Assembly (NCBI GenBank): GCA_002293685.1
Contig: DBDS01000006.1
Coordinates: forward strand, 108,867-172,866
Source of the DNA: Patescibacteria group bacterium UBA926
Lineage (GTDB): Bacteria; Patescibacteriota; Doudnabacteria; UBA920
Length of the DNA stretch: 64,000 nucleotides
Direction of reading: 5' to 3'
Shown here: piece by piece, positions 2,570 to 36,515 of the stretch
How positions within the stretch are numbered: position 1 is the stretch's first letter
Layout of the letters: each line of letters opens with the position of its first letter
Notes under the pieces: generated by a model
What the model was told of the DNA's origin: nothing
What the model saw: only the letters and a program-made list of their open reading frames with translations
Database searches by the model: none
Made by a program: the position numbers and the translations under genes

Positions 2570-5308
2570 ATGTCAATATTTAGTAAATTATTCAACTTCT
2601 CTTCTGGCGGTGGTTTGGGAAAATACCAATCAGAATTGGGTGTAATCAATGGCCTAGCAGAAGAAGTTTCTGCTTTATCCGATGACCAAATCCGCGCAGA
2701 AATTCAGGGTTTTAAAGATGAATTAAAATCCATTCAAGATGAGAGTAAGGTATTCAAGAAGTTAATAGAAATTCGTCCTCGCGTATTTGCACTAACTAGA
2801 GAAGCATCTAAACGAGCTCGTGGGCAATTTCATTACGACGTTCAAGTAATCGGCGGTTTGGTTTTATCGGAAGGACGTATTGCTGAGATGAAAACTGGTG
2901 AAGGTAAAACATTAACAGCAACTTTGCCGTTAGTCTTGTTTGCTTTGGCTGGACGTGGTACCCATTTGGTTACAGTTAATGATTACTTGGCTAGATGGCA
3001 GGCAAGCGACATGGGAAAGGTTTATGCTTTTCTTGGTTTATCTGTTGCAAGTATTCAACATGAAGCTTCGTTTCTATACGACGAATCCTATCAACCGGAG
3101 CAGGAAGAAATTGATGAAATCGAAGCGGGTACTCAGGGTTTAACTTTGGACGTGAAGCACATGAGACCGGTGCCAAGACAGGAAGCTTATCGAGCCGATA
3201 TCACATACGGAACAAACAATGAGTATGGATTTGATTATCTTCGCGATAATATGGTTCAAAGTGTGGATCAACTAAGACAACGCGATTTGTTTTATGCAAT
3301 TGTAGACGAAGTTGACAGCATTCTAATTGATGAAGCTCGGACTCCATTGATAATTTCCCAACCAGACTCTGAACCAACAGATAAGTATTATCAATTTTCT
3401 AAGATGGTAGACAAACTTCAAGATAAAGAAGATTATACTATTGATGAAAAACATAAAGCTGCCAGTTTGACTGATGACGGAATCACTAAAGTAGAAAAAA
3501 TTCTTAATGTCCAAAACATTTACGACACAAGCGCTGGTGTAACAACATTACATCATATTGAACAAGCTCTCCGTGCAAAAACTTTGTACAAGCGTGATCG
3601 CGATTACGTTATCCGTGATGGCGAAGTTGTCATTGTAGATGAATTCACAGGTCGGCTGATGTTTGGTCGACGTTACAGTCAAGGTTTACACCAAGCGATT
3701 GAAGCGAAAGAAAATGTAAAGATTCAACAAGAAAGTAAAACGTTAGCAACAATCACTTTCCAAAACTTATTCAGACTTTATTCCAGACTTTCTGGTATGA
3801 CCGGTACTGCTAAAACTGAAGAAGAAGAATTTTTCAAAATCTATCAGCTGGAAGTTACACAAATTCCTACCAATCAACCAATGGTTCGTATCGATCAATC
3901 CGATTTAGTATTTAAAAATGAACCAGGAAAATTTGCGGCAATTGCCAGAGATGTAAAAGAGCGTCATAAGAAAGGACAACCGGTTTTAATCGGTACAGTT
4001 AGTATTGCCAAAAATGAGTTGTTAGCAGAAGAACTCAAAAGAGCGGGCATTCCATTTGAAGTATTGAACGCTAAGAACCATGAACGTGAAGCGCAGATTA
4101 TCGCCCAAGCAGGAAGTTTTGGTGCAGTTACTGTTGCGACAAACATTGCTGGCCGTGGTGTAGATATTCTGCTCGGTGGAAATCCAGTTGATAAAGAAGA
4201 GGCTGAGCGCGTGCGTGAGGCCGGTGGATTAGCTGTAATCGGTACAGAACGTCATGAATCACGCCGCATCGACAATCAGCTACGTGGACGTTCCGGACGT
4301 CAGGGTGACCCAGGTTCAAGCCAATTTTACGTTTCCATGGAAGATGACTTGATGCGTTTGTTTGGTGGAGCTCGCATGCAAGGCATGATGGAAACTCTAA
4401 AGATTCCAGACGACCAACCAATCGAAGCGAAAATGATTTCGCGTTCAATTGAATCAGCTCAAAAGAAAATTGAAGGTCTTAACTTTGATACTCGTAAAAG
4501 TGTTCTTGAATTTGATGATGTCTTAAATCATCAACGTAAGAAAATTTATTCCCGTCGTCGCAAATATTTATCTGGAACTAAAGATCAGGAACCAATTAAA
4601 GGTGAGATTTTAGAATCACTTAAATCTAGACTTGCTGAAATTACTTCTGTTCATTTCGGGAACCTTGATTTCAAAGAAGCGTTAGAGCAAATTTCACTGG
4701 AAGCCAGTGCGATATTGCCAAATCTAACTGATGAAGTTAAAAATCAAATTTTTGAACGAACAACTTCCGCTGCAGACAGCGAGTTTGTAGTTTTAGATGA
4801 GCTTAATAAGTTGGCTGATGAAGCTATGGAGTCAAAGAGTAAAGAGATTGGTGAAGAGCTCTACGAAAATATTCTTCGTTCCATTACACTTCAAGCGATT
4901 GATAGACTTTGGATGGAACATTTGGACACTATGGACCACTTGCGTGACTCGGTTCGTTTGCGAGGTTACGGTATGCGTGACCCATTAGTTGAGTATAAAA
5001 AAGAAGGTCACTTATTATTCCAACGGCTGTTATCAGAAATCGATCAACAGATTTTAGGTGCTGCTTTAAGAATCGGTGTTGAAACTCATACGGACGACAA
5101 GGGTCAACAACACCATCATGCTACCATTAATATGACTGGTGGTTCAACCAACAATTCTGCACCTACAGCTGTAGCTGAGCAAAAAGATCCACGTGCGGGT
5201 GACATCGGCCGTAACGATCCGTGTTTCTGTGGTAGCGGTAAAAAGTATAAGAAGTGTGGCTTGCTGAATACGGCAGAACACATTAAAAACTTAGGAAAAA
5301 TCACATAA
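2570..5308 (+). CDS. secA: preprotein translocase ATPase SecA
   Basis: 912 aa. DEAD-motor motifs (MKTGEGKTL, DEVDSILIDEARTPLIIS). C-terminal zinc-binding tail CFCGSGKKYKKCG. The last ~16 codons lie inside or after the attL core and so are phage-supplied. Confidence 0.95.
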   Translation: MSIFSKLFNFSSGGGLGKYQSELGVINGLAEEVSALSDDQIRAEIQGFKDELKSIQDESKVFKKLIEIRPRVFALTREASKRARGQFHYDVQVIGGLVLSEGRIAEMKTGEGKTLTATLPLVLFALAGRGTHLVTVNDYLARWQASDMGKVYAFLGLSVASIQHEASFLYDESYQPEQEEIDEIEAGTQGLTLDVKHMRPVPRQEAYRADITYGTNNEYGFDYLRDNMVQSVDQLRQRDLFYAIVDEVDSILIDEARTPLIISQPDSEPTDKYYQFSKMVDKLQDKEDYTIDEKHKAASLTDDGITKVEKILNVQNIYDTSAGVTTLHHIEQALRAKTLYKRDRDYVIRDGEVVIVDEFTGRLMFGRRYSQGLHQAIEAKENVKIQQESKTLATITFQNLFRLYSRLSGMTGTAKTEEEEFFKIYQLEVTQIPTNQPMVRIDQSDLVFKNEPGKFAAIARDVKERHKKGQPVLIGTVSIAKNELLAEELKRAGIPFEVLNAKNHEREAQIIAQAGSFGAVTVATNIAGRGVDILLGGNPVDKEEAERVREAGGLAVIGTERHESRRIDNQLRGRSGRQGDPGSSQFYVSMEDDLMRLFGGARMQGMMETLKIPDDQPIEAKMISRSIESAQKKIEGLNFDTRKSVLEFDDVLNHQRKKIYSRRRKYLSGTKDQEPIKGEILESLKSRLAEITSVHFGNLDFKEALEQISLEASAILPNLTDEVKNQIFERTTSAADSEFVVLDELNKLADEAMESKSKEIGEELYENILRSITLQAIDRLWMEHLDTMDHLRDSVRLRGYGMRDPLVEYKKEGHLLFQRLLSEIDQQILGAALRIGVETHTDDKGQQHHHATINMTGGSTNNSAPTAVAEQKDPRAGDIGRNDPCFCGSGKKYKKCGLLNTAEHIKNLGKIT
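5239..5262. repeat. attL core (TAAAAAGTATAAgAAGTGtGGCTT) inside secA 3' end
   Basis: Matches 36449-36472 at 22 of 24 nt; identical 12-mer TAAAAAGTATAA. Confidence 0.75.
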
Positions 5309-7392: not shown

Positions 7393-7662
7393 ATGATAAA
7401 AAAATATCAAGTATTAGTGCGTGAAGTTTATGAGAGTGAGGAAACGGAAACAATAATTGTGAATGTTAACTCACAGGAAGAAATAGCTAGCTGGAAGTTT
7501 AGCGACTTAACCCCTGAGGAAAAACGGGATTATGTAAAGCAAGAAGTGCCAACTGGTAAAAACAAGTTGGAAATATCCAACAGTGAGTTGTACCAACAAG
7601 TTTTTAATGTAAATGATTTGAAAATTGAGGACTTGGTGCTTTATCTAAACCGCGTTAAGTAG
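7393..7662 (+). CDS. hypothetical acidic protein
   Basis: 89-aa ORF with good spacing in the + strand operon. Confidence 0.4.
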   Translation: MIKKYQVLVREVYESEETETIIVNVNSQEEIASWKFSDLTPEEKRDYVKQEVPTGKNKLEISNSELYQQVFNVNDLKIEDLVLYLNRVK

Positions 7663-29120: not shown

Positions 29121-30422
29121 ATGAAAAGCAGCGCAGTAGCGGCAGGCGATACAGCCACAGCCGCACAATACAATAATTTAAGACAAGACGCCAGCGCGTC
29201 AAGTTTTTTGTACCCGTCTGCACAATCTAGCCCAAATATGACAATAAAAATTGAGGCTGGACTAGGATTTATAGGACAGACGAAAGTTGAATATGCAGGG
29301 GGGAATAGCCCAACAATGACAGCGCCAACTGTTAACCCACGCATTGACTTGGTTTATATTGATAGTGCTGGAACTATTACAATCGCAAATGGGGCAGAGG
29401 CAGCCAGCCCAAGCGCACCAGCACTTGTAAATAATACTATACCAATTTGCTATATCTACCACCGAACAACAGCGACAGGTATTTATGATACTGATACTGC
29501 TGGGCAATCTTATATCTATAAAGATTTGCGAGCTTTTCTTACGAACCCAGCAGTTGTGCAGGGTGGTAGTAATATGCAAATTTTTGAAGCCGTTGGGGCT
29601 GGAACTTGGAACAAGCCTACAGGTACAGGTGCAAATAGTGTTGTTATTGTTGAAGTTTGGGGTAGCGGTGGCGGCGGTGGTAATGGTGCTAACGCTACTG
29701 GCGGCGGTGGCGGCGGTGGCGGTGCATATTTTAAGAAAGTTTTTAAAGCGTCTGAACTAGGCTCAACAGAAAGTATCTCAGTAGCGCAAGGTGGCGGCGG
29801 TGGCTCAACTAACGGGGCAGCAGGAAACAACGGCGCCAGCTCTACTTTTGGTAGTGGTGCAACCCTAGTTACAGGATATGGCGGCGGGCGTGGACGAGAG
29901 GGCGTTGCAGACGGGCAAGGCGGCGGCGGTGGCATGTATGGTGCTGGCGAGGGCGGCGGCGTCGGTGGTAGTGGTATTGGTGGTAATGGTGGTTTAGGGG
30001 GCGCACCCAATATACCAAATAATGCAACCTTTACCCACCCGTCTGGTTATGGATTAGGTGCTAACGCTGGCAATGGTATGAACGCAGGGAATAGCACTAC
30101 TGGTGGTGGTGGCGGTGCAGATAGCACACAAACCCCAGGCAGTAGCGTGTTTGGTGGTGGTGGTGGCGGTGCAAGCGGGAATGGTGGGGTTAGTGTTTAC
30201 GGTGGTGGTGGTGGTGGCGGTGCAGGTGCCACAACAGTATCAACTTGTTTAGGCGGTGTAAGCCCCTTTGGTGGGAAAGGTGGTAATGCAGGTAATGGAA
30301 CAATAGCAGCAGAGGACGGACAACAGCCAGGCGGTGGTGGCGGCGGCTCAAGGGGTAATTCCGCTGGTAGCAGAGCTGGCAATGGCGGTAATGGGAAAGT
30401 AGTAGTAACAACTATATTCTAA
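29121..30422 (+). CDS. glycine-rich putative tail fibre / receptor-binding protein
   Basis: 433 aa. N-terminal 190 aa ordinary. The remainder is poly-Gly blocks (GGGGG runs) interspersed with N/S/T/A. Confidence 0.5.
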   Translation: MKSSAVAAGDTATAAQYNNLRQDASASSFLYPSAQSSPNMTIKIEAGLGFIGQTKVEYAGGNSPTMTAPTVNPRIDLVYIDSAGTITIANGAEAASPSAPALVNNTIPICYIYHRTTATGIYDTDTAGQSYIYKDLRAFLTNPAVVQGGSNMQIFEAVGAGTWNKPTGTGANSVVIVEVWGSGGGGGNGANATGGGGGGGGAYFKKVFKASELGSTESISVAQGGGGGSTNGAAGNNGASSTFGSGATLVTGYGGGRGREGVADGQGGGGGMYGAGEGGGVGGSGIGGNGGLGGAPNIPNNATFTHPSGYGLGANAGNGMNAGNSTTGGGGGADSTQTPGSSVFGGGGGGASGNGGVSVYGGGGGGGAGATTVSTCLGGVSPFGGKGGNAGNGTIAAEDGQQPGGGGGGSRGNSAGSRAGNGGNGKVVVTTIF

Positions 30423-30426
30423 AAAA

Positions 30427-31107
30427 ATGAAAAAAATAATTTACACACTTAATATAAATAACTACGCCCCCGAATTAAGGGCGTTAACGCGCCCGCACTT
30501 AGAGTTTTACGCTAAAAGGATTGGCGCCGAAATTATAGATATTACAGAGCGCAAATACCCACACATGCCTGTGGTTTATGAAAAGCTGCAAATCTATGAT
30601 TTAGCACAAAAATATAGAGCAGATTGGAATATATACATTGACAGCGACTGCTTAATACACCCTGAAACAATAGATTTTACTAACTTTTTAGATAAAAGCA
30701 CTGTTTTCCAAGTAGGTAGCGATATGGCGGCTATTAGGTGGCGTTACGATAAATATTTTTTGCGCGACGGTAGAAATATTGGAACATGTAATTGGTTTAC
30801 CATTTTTAGCGACTGGTGCATTGATTTATATAAACCGCTTGAAGATATGGAACTAGACGAGGTAATGCAATATATGTATCCAACCGTTATAGAAAGAACC
30901 ACAGTAGTAGATACTGCCCATTTGATTGACGATTTTGTGTTATCAAGGAATGTAGCGAGGTATGGGTTGAAGTACCAAAATTTAAAAGAATTGTTGGAAA
31001 AAATTGGCTTGCCAAATGCAAACTTTTTTTGGCACGAATACCTAATTACCACCCAAGAAAAAGTGGCAAAGGCTAAGGAAGTCATAAAACTATGGAAAAT
31101 TAACTAA
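30427..31107 (+). CDS. DxD-motif glycosyltransferase-like protein (AT-rich moron)
   Basis: 226 aa. YDLAQKYRADWNIYIDSDCLI resembles the sugar-binding DxD region of GT32/GT8-type transferases. G+C clearly below flanking phage DNA. Confidence 0.4.
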   Translation: MKKIIYTLNINNYAPELRALTRPHLEFYAKRIGAEIIDITERKYPHMPVVYEKLQIYDLAQKYRADWNIYIDSDCLIHPETIDFTNFLDKSTVFQVGSDMAAIRWRYDKYFLRDGRNIGTCNWFTIFSDWCIDLYKPLEDMELDEVMQYMYPTVIERTTVVDTAHLIDDFVLSRNVARYGLKYQNLKELLEKIGLPNANFFWHEYLITTQEKVAKAKEVIKLWKIN

Positions 31108-31114
31108 ATTAAGC

Positions 31115-31534
31115 ATGGCAGAAGATACACAACAAGACCGACGCACCCCTGAGGTGCCACCATACCCACATGCGGTACAAAGCGACCATGACGCTATTGT
31201 AACCTTAGTTGCCGAAACACGGGCGTTGAGCAGGCAAATAAGCGAAATGAAAAATGTAGAGCTTAAAGACATTAGGGCTGACATTAAAGAGGTAAAGGAC
31301 AATGTGGCTGACCGAGTGCGGGATTTGGAACAAGAGAAAATAGACAAGGCAGAGGTGTTGAAAATGCAGCAGGACGCTGAGAAAATACACACCGACCACG
31401 AAACCCGTATTAGGGTTAATGAGCAATTTAGAGAAAATTTTAAAGGCAAGTACGCCATTTTGGCGGTGCTTGGCAGTGCGGTTATTTCTGTTGTTGTATC
31501 TTTAGTGATTTTAGCGGCTAACAAATTAACCTGA
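31115..31534 (+). CDS. XhlA-like lysis-associated membrane protein (coiled coil + C-terminal TM)
   Basis: 139 aa. Charged coiled-coil N-terminus. Single C-terminal TM YAILAVLGSAVISVVVSLVILAA. Immediately upstream of the endolysin. Confidence 0.35.
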   Translation: MAEDTQQDRRTPEVPPYPHAVQSDHDAIVTLVAETRALSRQISEMKNVELKDIRADIKEVKDNVADRVRDLEQEKIDKAEVLKMQQDAEKIHTDHETRIRVNEQFRENFKGKYAILAVLGSAVISVVVSLVILAANKLT

Positions 31535-31538
31535 AAAC

Positions 31539-32990
31539 ATGGATAACGAACTATACCCGTTGGGTGCGGTTAAAGACCCTGTAGACGAACGCGACATACT
31601 CTATGCTACCGTGGCTGAACCAGTGGCTAGTTTGCCGCGCAAGTTTAGCCTGCGCGATAAGCAAAGCCCTGTGGCACGGCAAAAGTACGGCAGCTGTGTT
31701 GGATTTGCCAATAAGAGCGCGTGCGAATACCACCGTAAACGACTGCTTAATATAGACGAGGTTTTAAGTGGCAGATTTACATATGGCAGGTGCAAAGAAT
31801 TAGACGGCAGACCAGACGACGAGGGAACCTACCCACGCTTAGCACTGAGCGTTGCATTTGGCAAAGGCTTGGTGCTAGATAAGGATTTTTCTAACTCTAA
31901 ACCGCCCAGCCCCACCCACGCAGACTACATAAAGGCACCAGCTGACGAAATAACAGAGGGTGCCATACAAAGGGCAATGGTGGGTGGGTTTGTGCGGGTG
32001 CGCAACCTACAGGAACTTAAACAGGCATTGGTTGAACACGGCACGGTGCTTATTACCGTAAGTGTGTACACGCAGTTTGACAATCCCGAAAACGACGGTT
32101 TTATACCATGGGCAGCACAGCGAGCCAGCAGAGGCAGCCACGCAATTGTTTGCACTGGCTATGACGACGATTTTAGAGGCATTGGGGCAATTGAAGTTAA
32201 GAACAACTGGGGCGAGAACTGGGGCGACGACGGCTACGGCTGGATTGCTTACGACTACGAGGGCGAGGGGGCAACCCCATGCTGGGATATGTGGGTTATT
32301 GTTGGCGAGGATAAAGTTAATGCGCAGCTAACCAGTGGGGCGCCTATAAATTTGGTTTACCCAGTAGATACGCCAACCCCGTTTGTTACCCAACCTTTTG
32401 GCGCCCGCCCTGAGTATTACAAAAAATACGGCATGGCAGGACATAACGGCATTGACTTTAGAACCCGCGACACTAATAAACGGATATTAGCCTGCGACGA
32501 CGGCGAAGTTATCTTTGCTGGCAATGACGGCAGTTATGGGCAATCAGTAAGGATTAAGCACAGCTGGGGCATGAGCATTTACGCACATAACAGCCAAATA
32601 GTAATACCGCTTTATGAAAATGACGGCAGCAGCCCTAAGAGAGTAAAGCGTGGGCAACATATTGCTATAGCAGGGGCTAGCGGCGACACTGGCAACCCGC
32701 CCGCAGAACATTGCCACTTTGGGATTAGAATTAACGGCGTTAAGAACCCAGCCTACTTTGACTGGGTAGACCCAGCGCCATATTTAAAGAAAGGCGAACG
32801 CATGATTGGATACAAGCACCCAAGCAACAGCACAGTATACCTGCCTATTGGCGGTGGTACTTTAGTGCCTATTACCGACTGGGCTACTTTTTTAGCTTTG
32901 GGCGGCAGCGAAAGCAGTATTGTACAGCTCAGTGCTGAACAGTTTGCAAAGTATACCGTGGCAAACGGCGCGGTATTTACCAAGGCTTAA
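31539..32990 (+). CDS. endolysin with papain-like C1 cysteine peptidase + M23 metallopeptidase domains
   Basis: C1 triad contexts GSCVGFA / GSHAIVCTGYDD / NNWGENWGDDGY. M23 motifs HNGIDF and EHCHFGI. C-terminal ~90 aa possible binding domain. Confidence 0.65.
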   Translation: MDNELYPLGAVKDPVDERDILYATVAEPVASLPRKFSLRDKQSPVARQKYGSCVGFANKSACEYHRKRLLNIDEVLSGRFTYGRCKELDGRPDDEGTYPRLALSVAFGKGLVLDKDFSNSKPPSPTHADYIKAPADEITEGAIQRAMVGGFVRVRNLQELKQALVEHGTVLITVSVYTQFDNPENDGFIPWAAQRASRGSHAIVCTGYDDDFRGIGAIEVKNNWGENWGDDGYGWIAYDYEGEGATPCWDMWVIVGEDKVNAQLTSGAPINLVYPVDTPTPFVTQPFGARPEYYKKYGMAGHNGIDFRTRDTNKRILACDDGEVIFAGNDGSYGQSVRIKHSWGMSIYAHNSQIVIPLYENDGSSPKRVKRGQHIAIAGASGDTGNPPAEHCHFGIRINGVKNPAYFDWVDPAPYLKKGERMIGYKHPSNSTVYLPIGGGTLVPITDWATFLALGGSESSIVQLSAEQFAKYTVANGAVFTKA

Positions 32991-33068: not shown

Positions 33069-33539
33069 TTGAAATTTATTTTAACATTTATTGCCCTAGT
33101 GGTGCTGGCAACCCCAATAAGCACCCATACAGCGACAGCTGACAGCAGTTACTTAACCTATGACCAGCTTAAGGCTTATACCGAAAAGCAGGCAGAGCAG
33201 CAATGGAGTGCGCAATTAGTTGCTTATGCCCAAACTTTGGTAGGCAAAAGGACTGGCACCTGCGTTTTATCACTGCGCAACCACTTTGGTGTGCCGCGGG
33301 CTGATGTGCAGGGCTTGGCTAAGAGTACAAAAATTAACTCAAAGACAGGCAAGGTAGGGGCGGTAATTGTATTCCGCAATTTATCAAAATATGGGCATGT
33401 GGGCTACATAATTGCAGACCATGGCGACACATGGCTGTATTTCCACAGCAACATAGATTGGCGGGGTACAGGCAGAATAGACAAAATAGCAAAGACAGAC
33501 AGCCGCATTAGCGGTTACAGACTAATTAACTACAAATAA
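33069..33539 (+). CDS. secreted CHAP-domain peptidase/amidase
   Basis: TTG start. Signal peptide (KFILTFIALVVLATPISTHTATA). Cys in GTCVLSL and His in YGHVGYII fit CHAP. Confidence 0.5.
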   Translation: MKFILTFIALVVLATPISTHTATADSSYLTYDQLKAYTEKQAEQQWSAQLVAYAQTLVGKRTGTCVLSLRNHFGVPRADVQGLAKSTKINSKTGKVGAVIVFRNLSKYGHVGYIIADHGDTWLYFHSNIDWRGTGRIDKIAKTDSRISGYRLINYK

Positions 33540-34523: not shown

Positions 34524-35432
34524 ATGAAATTTAGCGAGGCAATCAAAGAATTTAGCGCATGGAAAGGCTTTAGCGTGAAAAATAATACCGTAAGTGGCTA
34601 TACTGGCGATTTACGGCTGCTTGCTTTATATTTGCGCGACCCCGAAATTACCGCAATTAGTTGGGGCGACATACAGCAATACCAAACCGATTGCATAAAA
34701 CTGGGCTGGGATAGCAATACTTTTGTGCGCAAGTTTATAGCTTACCGCAAGTTTTTTGCTTACTGGCACAGCAAAGACCCAAAAGTGCTTGACCCCGAAT
34801 GGATACCAGTAATGTATGCCGAAATGAAACAGCCGCGGGTTATAGACGAGGCAAACTATAAAAAGCTACTTGGGATTTTAAGCAAAGACAGCAAAGACCC
34901 GCGGCACCATAGGAACCGCGCCATGATACAGCTACTATGGGATACTGGCGCCCGCAACGGCGAACTGCTGAGTTTGAACCTAGACGACATTGACTTAAAT
35001 AAAATGTGTGCCGTGATACGCACCGAAAAGGCAAAGTTTAGACGGCAGTACAGGCAAATTTTTTGGACAAAGGAAACCAACGAGAGTATAGGCAATTGGT
35101 TGTCATTGCGCGAAAAGTTAAACAGCAAGTATTGGCTGATTAAAGACAAGGACGCGCTATTTATTTCTGTTACGGGTGTAAAGGCTGGCACTAGGCTAAA
35201 GGTTGGCGGGTTTGCGGAAATGCTGAGGCGGTACTGCGAAAAGGCGGGTATTGACCACTATAACCCACACAGCTTTAGGCACCACATGGGGCATGACATT
35301 ATCAAGAAAGGCGGCAGCAATTCTGATGTAAGCAACATACTAGGGCATAGCAGCTTGCAGAGCAGTTTTATTTACACAATGTTAAATGACAAAGAACTGG
35401 AAAAGAGATACAGGCAATTTAAAGGTCGTTAA
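34524..35432 (+). CDS. int: tyrosine integrase / site-specific recombinase
   Basis: C-terminal catalytic region HSFRHHMGH...ILGHSSLQSSFIYT (R..H..R..Y). N-terminal SAM-like domain. Adjacent to attR. Confidence 0.85.
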   Translation: MKFSEAIKEFSAWKGFSVKNNTVSGYTGDLRLLALYLRDPEITAISWGDIQQYQTDCIKLGWDSNTFVRKFIAYRKFFAYWHSKDPKVLDPEWIPVMYAEMKQPRVIDEANYKKLLGILSKDSKDPRHHRNRAMIQLLWDTGARNGELLSLNLDDIDLNKMCAVIRTEKAKFRRQYRQIFWTKETNESIGNWLSLREKLNSKYWLIKDKDALFISVTGVKAGTRLKVGGFAEMLRRYCEKAGIDHYNPHSFRHHMGHDIIKKGGSNSDVSNILGHSSLQSSFIYTMLNDKELEKRYRQFKGR

Positions 35433-35490: not shown

Positions 35491-36015
35491 ATGGACAACC
35501 AAACACAGCCAACCAAAAAGGCTATTTACAAGCGCTGGTGGTTTTGGGTGTTGGCAGTTGTTGTGCTGTTTGGCGTCATTGGCGCATTTGACGGCGACGG
35601 CAGCAAGACCGAACCTACTACCCAAGCTGAGAGCAGCACCACACAGGCTTACGCATTTGATGTGCCAAGTTTAATTGGCAAAAATGTAGACGAGGTTAAA
35701 GCAGTATTGGGCAACCCTACAAGCGATACCGAACCTACGCAGGCACAGTTAGCCAATGGGCTGACCAAGGAATGGGAAAAGACATTTACCAAAGACGGCG
35801 TTAGCATGCTAGTAACATACAGACTAGCAGACCGCAGCGTGGTAGACTTTTTCATTTCTACCAATGACCCAAGCGGTATGACAAAAGACACCGCTGCGCT
35901 TAAAAAACTGGGCAACATTACCCTAAGCGACAGCAGGTATAAAATTGACTTTGTAGAGGCGCTGAAAGACAAGAGCCAATACACTGGCATTAAAATTACC
36001 CCTACTGGACTATAA
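35491..36015 (+). CDS. membrane-anchored extracytoplasmic protein (lysogenic conversion / exclusion candidate)
   Basis: N-terminal TM WWFWVLAVVVLFGVIGAF, then a Thr/Ser-rich linker and a ~120-aa domain. Sits between int and attR. Confidence 0.45.
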   Translation: MDNQTQPTKKAIYKRWWFWVLAVVVLFGVIGAFDGDGSKTEPTTQAESSTTQAYAFDVPSLIGKNVDEVKAVLGNPTSDTEPTQAQLANGLTKEWEKTFTKDGVSMLVTYRLADRSVVDFFISTNDPSGMTKDTAALKKLGNITLSDSRYKIDFVEALKDKSQYTGIKITPTGL

Positions 36016-36434: not shown

Positions 36435-36515
36435 TTATGTGGGTGTGATAAAAAGTATAAAAAGTGCGGCTTAGCAAACACAGCTGAGCATCAACGAAAC
36501 TTAGCAAAGCAATAA
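36435..36515 (+). pseudogene. secA: displaced secA 3'-terminal fragment at attR
   Basis: Encodes CGCDKKYKKCGLANTAEHQRNLAKQ*, homologous to the SecA C-terminus at 5220-5308. Confidence 0.65.
36449..36472. repeat. attR core (TAAAAAGTATAAaAAGTGcGGCTT)
   Basis: Direct repeat of the attL core. Followed by a diverged secA 3' remnant. Confidence 0.75.

Follow-up and report, generated by a model that had tools for sequence, protein, structure and literature searches.

The window analysed here is a stretch of 64,000 nt from contig DBDS01000006.1 of Patescibacteria group bacterium UBA926. It contains a complete prophage, and the subject of this work is a gene of that prophage, lying between the tail and the lysis genes, whose product is a predicted glycosyltransferase (GT; Table 1). 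The original prediction, made from the letters of the sequence, had placed this gene between a fibre gene and the lysis genes with spacers of 4–7 bp. The open reading frame (ORF) is indeed present, and it is separated by 4 nt from the stop of the fibre ORF (30422) and by 7 nt from the next ATG (31115). On its 5' side are encoded, in this order, a tape measure protein (TMP), a hub/tail protein, a small fibre-like protein and a 433-aa fibre; on its 3' side follow a coiled-coil protein with a transmembrane (TM) helix, an endolysin, a CHAP-like protein, a small protein with two TM-like segments as judged by eye, an integrase and a candidate Sie-like superinfection-exclusion protein. Neither a promoter-like site in the interval 30200–30430 nor a plus-strand terminator after the GT gene was found, the counts being the same as in shuffled controls; the promoter search used a sigma-70 consensus, which may not fit this host.

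Table 1. Positions in the window of the GT gene, its motifs, the fibre domains and other prophage features
Feature	Position	Strand	Description
Left att core	5239..5262		in the 3' end of host secA; 22/24 identity with right core
Fibre, N-terminal ~150 aa	29121..29570	+	anchor domain common to the phage's relatives; 56% identical to L115 fibre, 45–48% to L127 fibre
Fibre, distal glycine-rich (Gly_rich_2-type) domain	29571..30422	+	aa 151–433; transferred part of the cassette with the GT gene
GT gene	30427..31107	+	ATG to TAA, 226 aa; soluble, predicted GT-A fold, unnamed phage family
D72-S73-D74 codons	30640..30648	+	DxD metal/nucleotide-sugar motif
G119-T-C121-N122-W123 codons	30781..30795	+	G119, C121 (≥90%), N122 and W123 conserved; intein insertion point in homologues
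H165-L-I-D168-D169 codons	30919..30933	+	H165, D168, D169 invariant; candidate catalytic or acceptor-site acidic pair
His203 codon	31033..31035	+	invariant; possible third metal ligand
Coiled-coil protein	31115..31534	+	139 aa, one C-terminal TM helix (Kyte–Doolittle (KD) maximum 2.88 at residue 115); putatively lysis-associated; first gene after the cassette
Endolysin	31539..32990	+	Peptidase_C1 + Peptidase_M23 (Pfam E 7.5e-10 and 2.6e-16); 62% identical to L127 lysin
Integrase	34524..35432		Pfam E 2.5e-28
Sie-like superinfection-exclusion candidate	35491..36015	+	174 aa; PHROG 8545 and 4980 (E 1e-8 and 4e-8); beside integrase, canonical moron position
Right att core	36449..36472		prophage ~31.2 kb; contig L002 ends exactly at 36472

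Base composition

It had also been claimed that the gene has a lower G+C content than all surrounding phage genes and a composition nearer to that of the host. In raw G+C the first statement is correct, with about 36.0% for the GT gene, 43.5–51.3% for the neighbouring genes scored and 0.35–0.39 in the host flanks of the prophage; 681-nt windows as poor as the gene occur at one other place in the prophage, around 7151. The second statement also stands: the G+C content at third codon positions (GC3) is 0.346 for the GT gene (z = −3.3 relative to the phage genes), a value that lies between the phage-gene mean of 0.478 (sd 0.040, n = 23) and the host-gene mean of 0.264 (sd 0.023, n = 14). When recoded, the GT protein would give 41.6% G+C with phage codon usage and 35.0% with host usage, compared with 36.1% observed. 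About half of the G+C deficit is due to amino-acid composition, the protein being rich in I, K, N, Y, F and D, and the remainder is due to host-like codon usage. Homologues at 103 other loci lie on average 2.9 G+C points under their own flanks, 88% of them being lower.

At synonymous sites, by contrast, the GT gene is not the extreme case. The fibre gene is a stronger GC3 outlier (z = −4.1); its G+C of 51.3% compares with 59.2% expected from phage usage and 49.5% from host usage, and this is masked in raw G+C by the GGN glycine codons. Since the fibre gene shares the host-like codon signature, the anomalous unit is the two-gene segment 29121–31107 rather than a single gene.

Two further compositional features of the prophage were observed. 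An early-region ORF of 89 aa (7393–7662; G+C 0.352, GC3 0.38), which matches no family, is G+C-poor as well, and the prophage as a whole (~5263–36472) lies some 10 G+C points above its host (GC3 0.478 versus 0.264), an unusual direction.

Conserved residues and predicted fold of the GT protein

The GT protein matches no Pfam family, even at E ≤ 10, and has no match at threshold in PHROG, in NCBIfam, where the matches are at chance level, or among the PDB sequences, searched with the single sequence and with a profile. A kinship with GT8, GT32 or Gly_transf_sug was not recovered by hidden Markov models (HMMs), none of which reached threshold; weak GT21/GT2 matches were given by some homologues. 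A phage GenBank collection contains one distant match (38% identity), from an unannotated marine virus. A word-indexed search yielded 985 homologues, and an exhaustive profile search 758 clusters at 50% identity, 171 of them at E ≤ 1e-30. Among the homologues listed, 119 of 120 are unnamed or 'hypothetical' in their source, and a literature search returned no account of this family or of Gly_rich_2 in phages.

Residue conservation was scored over 43 diverse homologues, in which 45 residues are invariant. These include D72, S73 and D74, that is, the DxD of the block quoted in the original prediction (YEKLQIYDLAQKYRADWNIYIDSDCLIHPE, residues 51–80), together with E52/K53/Q55, H78/P79, R113/D114/R116, N122/W123, H165/D168/D169, S173/N175 and H203, and 22 of the 45 fall in the presumed acceptor half. 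Comparison with the closest relatives gave a pN of 0.15–0.16 with synonymous sites saturated; the gene is under strong purifying selection. In two homologues, P0129 and P0136, a LAGLIDADG/HINT intein sits immediately before Cys121 (nt 30787–30789), which identifies the G-x-C-N-W block as functionally critical; P0129 also has a C-terminal TylF-type methyltransferase. Sub-threshold Pfam matches to Glyco_transf_21 were obtained for 18 of the 43 homologues (best E 0.003) and to GT2_3 for seven. The only one of the GT21 matches that was mapped, in homologue L046, covers the HLIDDYxLSRNIAxYGLK block, and it is in the region matching HLIDD that GT2-clan enzymes hold their catalytic acid. By analogy with GT-A enzymes of the DxD...H type, His203 may be a third metal ligand.

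The AlphaFold model (pLDDT 95.9, pTM 0.92) is an alternating beta/alpha domain in which the DSD comes directly after strand 67–71, the canonical position of the DxD in GT-A enzymes. A Foldseek search of the PDB with this model returned 205 matches at E ≤ 1e-3, and the 50 listed are all glycosyltransferases. The best is the N-terminal domain of PBCV-1 A064R (2P73/2P6W/2P72; E 1.5e-7), followed by the GT6 ABO transferases, the GT34 enzyme XXT1 (TMq 0.63) and COLGALT1. In a viral structure library 180 matches were obtained at E ≤ 1e-3, the top ones being annotated GT34, GT8 and GT25; those that have a name are GT-A enzymes, as are the 50 listed from the PDB. The DxD glycosyltransferase-like product that had been proposed is therefore supported by a GT-A fold predicted with high confidence, and the assignment rests on fold, not on membership of a curated sequence family. 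The protein has no TM segment and no signal-like N-terminus (19-residue KD maximum 0.75). In all, it appears to represent an undescribed phage-specific GT-A family that is absent from Pfam, from PHROG functional annotation and from the PDB.

With the retaining enzymes of GT6, GT34 and GT8 the window GT has in common the fold (Foldseek E 3e-6 to 2e-5) and the DxD ... His arrangement. However, it matches none of their Pfam models, and the weak sequence matches of its homologues go to the inverting GT21/GT2 clan. The cues on stereochemistry thus disagree, the structural neighbours being mostly retaining and the sequence echo inverting.

A GT-A-fold protein could also hydrolyse or bind nucleotide sugars, or have a structural or chaperone role for the fibre, without being a transferase. 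The failure of GT family HMMs to reach threshold and the TM-scores to solved GTs, which are moderate (0.52–0.63), would fit such a protein. Nevertheless, the DxD is invariant at its canonical position and accompanied by conserved acidic and His residues, the PDB matches listed are glycosyltransferases without exception, and some members of the family carry a methyltransferase or additional GT domains as fusions. A non-transferase is therefore a very unlikely reading.

A cassette made of the distal fibre domain and the GT gene

As a whole, the 433-aa fibre matches PHROG 863, of the tail category (E 2.7e-11). Its distal domain, whose match to Pfam Gly_rich_2 is weak (E 0.11, profile positions 4–219 of 226), has a conserved start (VEVWG-GGGGG...GGGGGGAY), and its only significant matches are with GT-adjacent fibres at four loci, L008, L009, L010 and L088. 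The similarity amounts to 46–56% identity over the first ~100 aa (E 1e-10 to 5e-16) and extends to the same C-terminal ending, 'GNGGNG.V.VT.IF'. The GTs of these four loci are those closest to the window GT (77–80%), and the rest of their contigs contains nothing resembling the window phage.

A scan of viral contigs for relatives of the whole fibre protein confirmed none, and two relatives of the phage, L115 and L127, were found through the hub and the lysin. In L115 the tube, TMP and hub are 74–82% identical to those of the window phage, and the fibre shares only its N-terminal 144 aa (56%) before running into an unrelated distal domain that is not glycine-rich. In L127 the hub is 52% identical, and the N-terminal ~140–160 aa of the fibre are shared and followed by a glycine-rich distal domain of its own, with which the window distal domain gives no significant match. 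The gene order of L127 is p28412-like, fibre, TM protein and lysin, without a GT gene, the fibre ending at 7420 and the next gene starting at 7442.

The distal domain and the GT have their counterparts in unrelated podophage contigs (L008, L009, L088/L111), and the fibre N-terminus, hub, TMP and lysin have theirs in L115 and L127. The distal domain and the GT gene therefore constitute one mobile cassette, which was exchanged between a podophage lineage and the siphophage lineage of the window. The GT gene is accessory, being absent at the same junction in the syntenic L127. To call it a moron, as was done originally, is apt in that the gene is present or absent between adjacent genes, and misleading in that the unit is not a single-gene island but includes the fibre.

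Two peculiarities of the relatives may be recorded here. Positions 1–5667 of L115, the contig of the closest relative, are a fold-back chimera, with hub residues 99–473 on the plus strand and hub 1–134, TMP and tube on the minus strand. L127 is low in G+C along its whole contig (GC3 ~0.30–0.36).

Distribution and gene neighbourhoods of the family

At least 158 homologues were confirmed on IMG/VR viral contigs, 80 of the 158 contigs being retrieved for context, and 23 more lie on contigs of metagenome-assembled genomes (MAGs). Together the viral contigs and MAGs span more than 10 phyla; the MAG labels include Cyclobacteriaceae, Saccharibacteria, Zambryskiibacteria, Woesebacteria, Gottesmanbacteria, Acidimicrobiaceae, Chloroflexia, Dehalococcoidia, Acidobacteriota, Bryobacteraceae, Phycisphaerales and Bdellovibrionales, among others. 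Most of these homologues are 46–55% identical to the window GT.

This distribution, and the blocks of virion genes in which the family is found, contradict the suggestion that the phage captured the gene from its host. A recently captured passenger devoid of phage function would account for the near-host G+C and codon usage of the GT gene, and two MAG copies, L098 and L102, do lie among bacterial or insertion sequence (IS) genes. Yet the closest relatives (77–80% identity) are carried by phage contigs, where the same fibre domain adjoins them, no GT homologue is present in the host sequence on either side of the prophage, the gene is strongly constrained, and its homologues are everywhere slightly G+C-poor relative to their flanks through amino-acid composition. 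Capture of this kind is of all the explanations considered here the least credible.

Neighbours were counted at 104 GT loci, 76 after dereplication at 90% identity, and an ORF was called strongly glycine-rich when it contained at least 40% Gly in a 60-aa window. All 28 such ORFs at the 104 loci are on the GT strand, and 25 of them lie within 1 kb of the GT. After dereplication the figure is 20 of 22, for a uniform-placement null of 0.19 (P = 5e-13). The two genes overlap by up to 8 nt or lie up to 122 nt apart, the partner is of the Pfam Gly_rich_2 type (L035, E 1.6e-14), and at least 10 clades that are separate in the GT tree show the arrangement. At most loci of the family the GT gene comes first, and the structural gene starts 4 nt behind it or overlaps with it, which indicates that the GT could not be expressed without the structural gene. 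In the 11 contexts that are annotated, the GT always runs in the same direction as the capsid, portal, adaptor, tube or fibre genes among which it lies. Thus, a SU10-like podophage contig has the order GT2-TPR, collagen-like/glycine-rich fibre, GT, adaptor and 1439-aa Gly_rich_2 protein. On a 65-kb contig a 10-kb glycan cluster (GT1, methyltransferases, DegT, GFO/IDH, three GT2 and UDP-sugar dehydrogenase) ends in the GT, followed by a Gly_rich_2 gene 2 nt further on, a Laminin_G_3 fibre and the adaptor. On two siphophage contigs the head module includes a GT-Gly_rich_2 pair, flanked by the portal region on one side and by MuF, capsid or connector genes on the other, and another contig has methyltransferase and GT9 genes between capsid and adaptor.

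Enzymes acting on sugars are frequent companions. The GT is fused to a Methyltransf_24/TylF-type O-methyltransferase, at either end, in 11 of the 76 loci, and GT8 and GT9 domains serve as fusion partners in other members; the fusions to sugar O-methyltransferases and to further GTs suggest multi-step glycan assembly. Epimerase/dehydratase, DegT, UDP-sugar dehydrogenase, GT1 and GT2 genes are found as neighbours across the family. Another recurrent partner, a conserved radical-SAM-like protein of ~312 aa marked by CxxxCxxC and, C-terminally, by CxxC, was seen at about 30 loci (for instance L079 6684–7622 and L048 1801–2739) and is encoded directly 3' of the GT in 23 of the 76. It is annotated as Radical_SAM + SPASM in one context, and profile comparison found only a generic similarity to the SPASM-type core, far under the cut-offs. 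None of the three recurrent partners is present in 27 of the 76 loci.

The loci without a recurrent partner, and those with the radical-SAM/SPASM-like protein, raise the question of whether the GT has a different acceptor in the cytoplasm, for example a small molecule, a protein of the host or a signal connected with defence, its link with the fibre being mere hitch-hiking. The strong conservation of acceptor-side residues whatever the type of neighbour, and an Acb2/Tad1-like gene in one GT context, would be compatible with this. Conversely, the GT is consistently found in virion-structural operons, the glycine-rich link is strongly non-random, and the fusion partners are sugar-modifying or sugar-transferring enzymes; no defence-related family was matched in the scans made, which did not include a PADLOC search. 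I consider an acceptor of this sort unlikely.

Some individual loci are unusual in their own right. At L110 4850–11086, on the Candidatus Woesebacteria chromosome CP066693, a GT2 enzyme and a GT::Methyltransf_24 fusion are followed, in this order, by a 562-aa glycine-rich protein, a 162-aa ORF and a 529-aa ORF; the last consists of mucin-like SPSISPSVSPS... repeats and would be a plausible O-glycosylation substrate, although it is putative, the antisense ORF being open as well. L090 encodes a further paralogue of the GT family, with a DCD motif, directly 5' of its GT-methyltransferase fusion. L112 8001–10283 encodes a three-domain protein (P0186) in which the GT family is combined with GT8 and with a heptosyltransferase-like GT9, and which, on a 58-kb contig, has a phage holin gene on one side and giant RCC1/WD40-repeat proteins on the other.

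A virion protein as candidate acceptor

The reading that I favour, with a probability of about 45%, is that the GT is a soluble, metal-dependent GT-A glycosyltransferase acting on a virion protein, in the first place the adjacent glycine-rich fibre. The enzyme would bind a nucleotide sugar through the DxD and a metal ion, possibly with H203 as third ligand and with D168/D169 as candidate catalytic or acceptor-site pair. The donor would be made by the host, since the prophage carries no sugar-nucleotide genes, and the modification in the window phage would consist of one sugar or of a homopolymer, as no other sugar gene was detected in the complete prophage either. The GT would share its late transcript with the fibre and would move the sugar to its acceptor in the cytoplasm late in infection, where and when the virion protein is made, and the outcome would be an optional sugar decoration of the phage particle. 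A virion acceptor is favoured by the operon order, by the lack of transcription signals found near the GT, by the conserved acceptor half and by two precedents, A064R and the mycobacteriophages. Moreover, the combination of ~50% identity across many phyla with a conserved acceptor half suggests that the acceptor is itself conserved and not tied to one host.

The first precedent, the A064R N-terminal domain (TM 0.52–0.58 to the window GT), is a virus-encoded soluble GT-A enzyme of ~210 aa that uses a DXD and Mn2+ and makes the glycan carried by a structural protein of the virus itself. A064R as a whole is a chlorovirus capsid-glycan enzyme composed of two GTs and a methyltransferase (PMC9614988). 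The window family resembles it in its methyltransferase, GT8 and GT9 fusions and in its glycan-gene clusters. Unlike A064R, the window GT is a single-domain protein that stands alone in its phage, its host is a bacterium and its neighbour is a fibre, not a capsid gene; the two have 12–13% identity and no detectable sequence homology. The second precedent is the closest in function among bacteriophages: mycobacteriophage GTs are described as adding optional glycans to virion proteins, namely capsid and tail tube, that are made in the cytoplasm of the bacterium (PMC12619734, summarising Freeman et al. 2023). The likeness is one of function, and the candidate acceptor in the window, a glycine-rich fibre, is a different one.

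Several points weigh against virion glycosylation. No glycan has been observed. The phage is temperate and active, and the position of a GT gene beside that of a receptor-binding protein is also typical of the seroconverting phages P22, epsilon15 and Sf6. A glycine-rich neighbour is present in only about a quarter of the family loci, and L098 and L102 lie among ordinary bacterial or IS genes. Among nine independently sampled Gly_rich_2-type loci listed, none has a GT within 5 kb; together with the relative L127, which has no GT, this indicates that a glycine-rich fibre does not need one. Finally, the window fibre is not enriched in N-x-S/T sequons (6 versus 5.2 expected). In the GT-adjacent glycine-rich proteins taken in aggregate, N-x-T is found 124 times versus 84 expected and N-x-S 77 times versus 82.

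The strongest challenge comes from modification of the host envelope, in which the GT would work at the cytoplasmic face, adding a sugar to the precursor of a wall or surface glycopolymer. The receptor of the co-inherited fibre tip could thereby be altered, resulting in lysogenic conversion, in superinfection exclusion or in a late masking that keeps progeny from being trapped; the first two are the roles assigned to the gene in the original prediction. What remains of that assignment is that the phage is temperate and excision-competent and that the gene is accessory, missing from the syntenic L127. In addition, the GT is inherited with the receptor-binding part of the fibre, as expected of an enzyme matched to a receptor specificity, and its codon usage is host-like. 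Serotype conversion is among the roles named for phage GTs (PMC12619734). Like the Gtr enzymes of the P22/SfV type and TarP, moreover, the window GT is an accessory GT of a temperate phage; TarP, of an S. aureus prophage, is a soluble GT-A enzyme that modifies wall polymers, and in P22-like phages the conversion genes come after the tailspike gene.

The family context nevertheless points away from the envelope. The spacers leave the GT gene no room for a promoter or terminator of its own, in contrast to the independently transcribed Gtr and TarP genes, and none was seen, within the limits of the sigma-70 consensus; in most loci, indeed, it is tied to a following structural gene. Again unlike Gtr and TarP, the family extends over unrelated host phyla and is found in structural blocks of SU10-like podophages and large phages, which are usually virulent. 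Its identity of ~50%, with the C-terminal half equally conserved, is maintained from the candidate phyla radiation (CPR) to Acidobacteriota, Chloroflexota, Actinomycetota and Bacteroidota, groups that have no surface glycopolymer in common. The GT has no membrane anchor, and none of the Gtr-type partners (the GtrA flippase, the membrane-bound GT2 enzyme GtrB, the serotype-specific membrane protein GtrC) was detected in the prophage; a Gtr-type seroconversion cassette was rejected on these grounds. Furthermore, the position next to the integrase, canonical for exclusion genes, is already filled by the Sie-like candidate. Envelope modification is accordingly the less likely reading, though a serious one, and the same holds for the conversion, exclusion or masking that would result from it.

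Phage GTs are also known to glycosylate DNA (PMC12619734), and the GT might in principle attach sugars to hydroxymethylated phage bases as a protection against restriction, for which a soluble, cytoplasmic enzyme would be suitable. This would be most surprising here. The complete 31-kb prophage, examined in its ORFs of ~90 aa and upwards, showed no thymidylate-synthase-like hydroxymethylase, DNA-modification kinase or other base-modification gene, the GT gene is in the tail/lysis block and not in the replication block, and the neighbours of the family are virion and glycan genes. A DNA glucosyltransferase system was rejected for want of a detectable hydroxymethyl-pyrimidine pathway gene in the prophage.

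A phage GT as such is no surprise, and the window GT belongs with the phage-encoded glycosyltransferases; what is new is an undescribed family with a mobile arrangement of fibre tip and GT. An attractive, if tentative, extension of the virion-glycosylation reading is that this GT-A family of about 1000 proteins represents a widespread self-glycosylation system of phages, operating on Gly_rich_2 fibres and head fibres either alone or with sugar methyltransferases, other GTs and the radical-SAM enzyme as fused or neighbouring partners, and spreading among sipho- and podophages as a cassette of distal fibre and GT that would change receptor specificity and sugar coat together. Glycosylation of phage particles has been recognised only recently and, in the literature surveyed, for mycobacteriophages only. 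If the extension is correct, fibres with a sugar coat would be widespread among environmental phages of many phyla, those of the CPR included, with consequences for host recognition, for the evasion of receptor decoys or antibodies and for particle stability; some 1000 'hypothetical proteins' would gain a name and a testable function, and the fibre tip plus its enzyme would be a unit of horizontal exchange. If, instead, the host receptor is modified, the tight co-inheritance of the GT with a receptor-binding domain would constitute a compact new exclusion module.

Prophage ends and lysis genes

The ends of the prophage lie in and near host secA (2570–5308). The two att cores are imperfect repeats (Table 1). 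They fall in the codons of the C-terminal CxCGSGKKYKKC zinc motif of SecA, and the prophage supplies a replacement SecA tail; the 64-kb window contains no tRNA. Contig L003 joins window position 36472 to 5239 with a 24-nt overlap, which is the junction form of a circular, excised phage and indicates that the circular form exists in nature. The phage is thus temperate and active, that is, excision-competent.

The coiled-coil protein encoded immediately after the cassette has a phage-like GC3 and no family match in the library scans. The endolysin that follows combines Peptidase_C1 and Peptidase_M23, an unusual pair of domains, and a separate CHAP-like protein is encoded at 33069–33539 (E 1.5e-4), its N-terminus resembling a signal peptide by eye.

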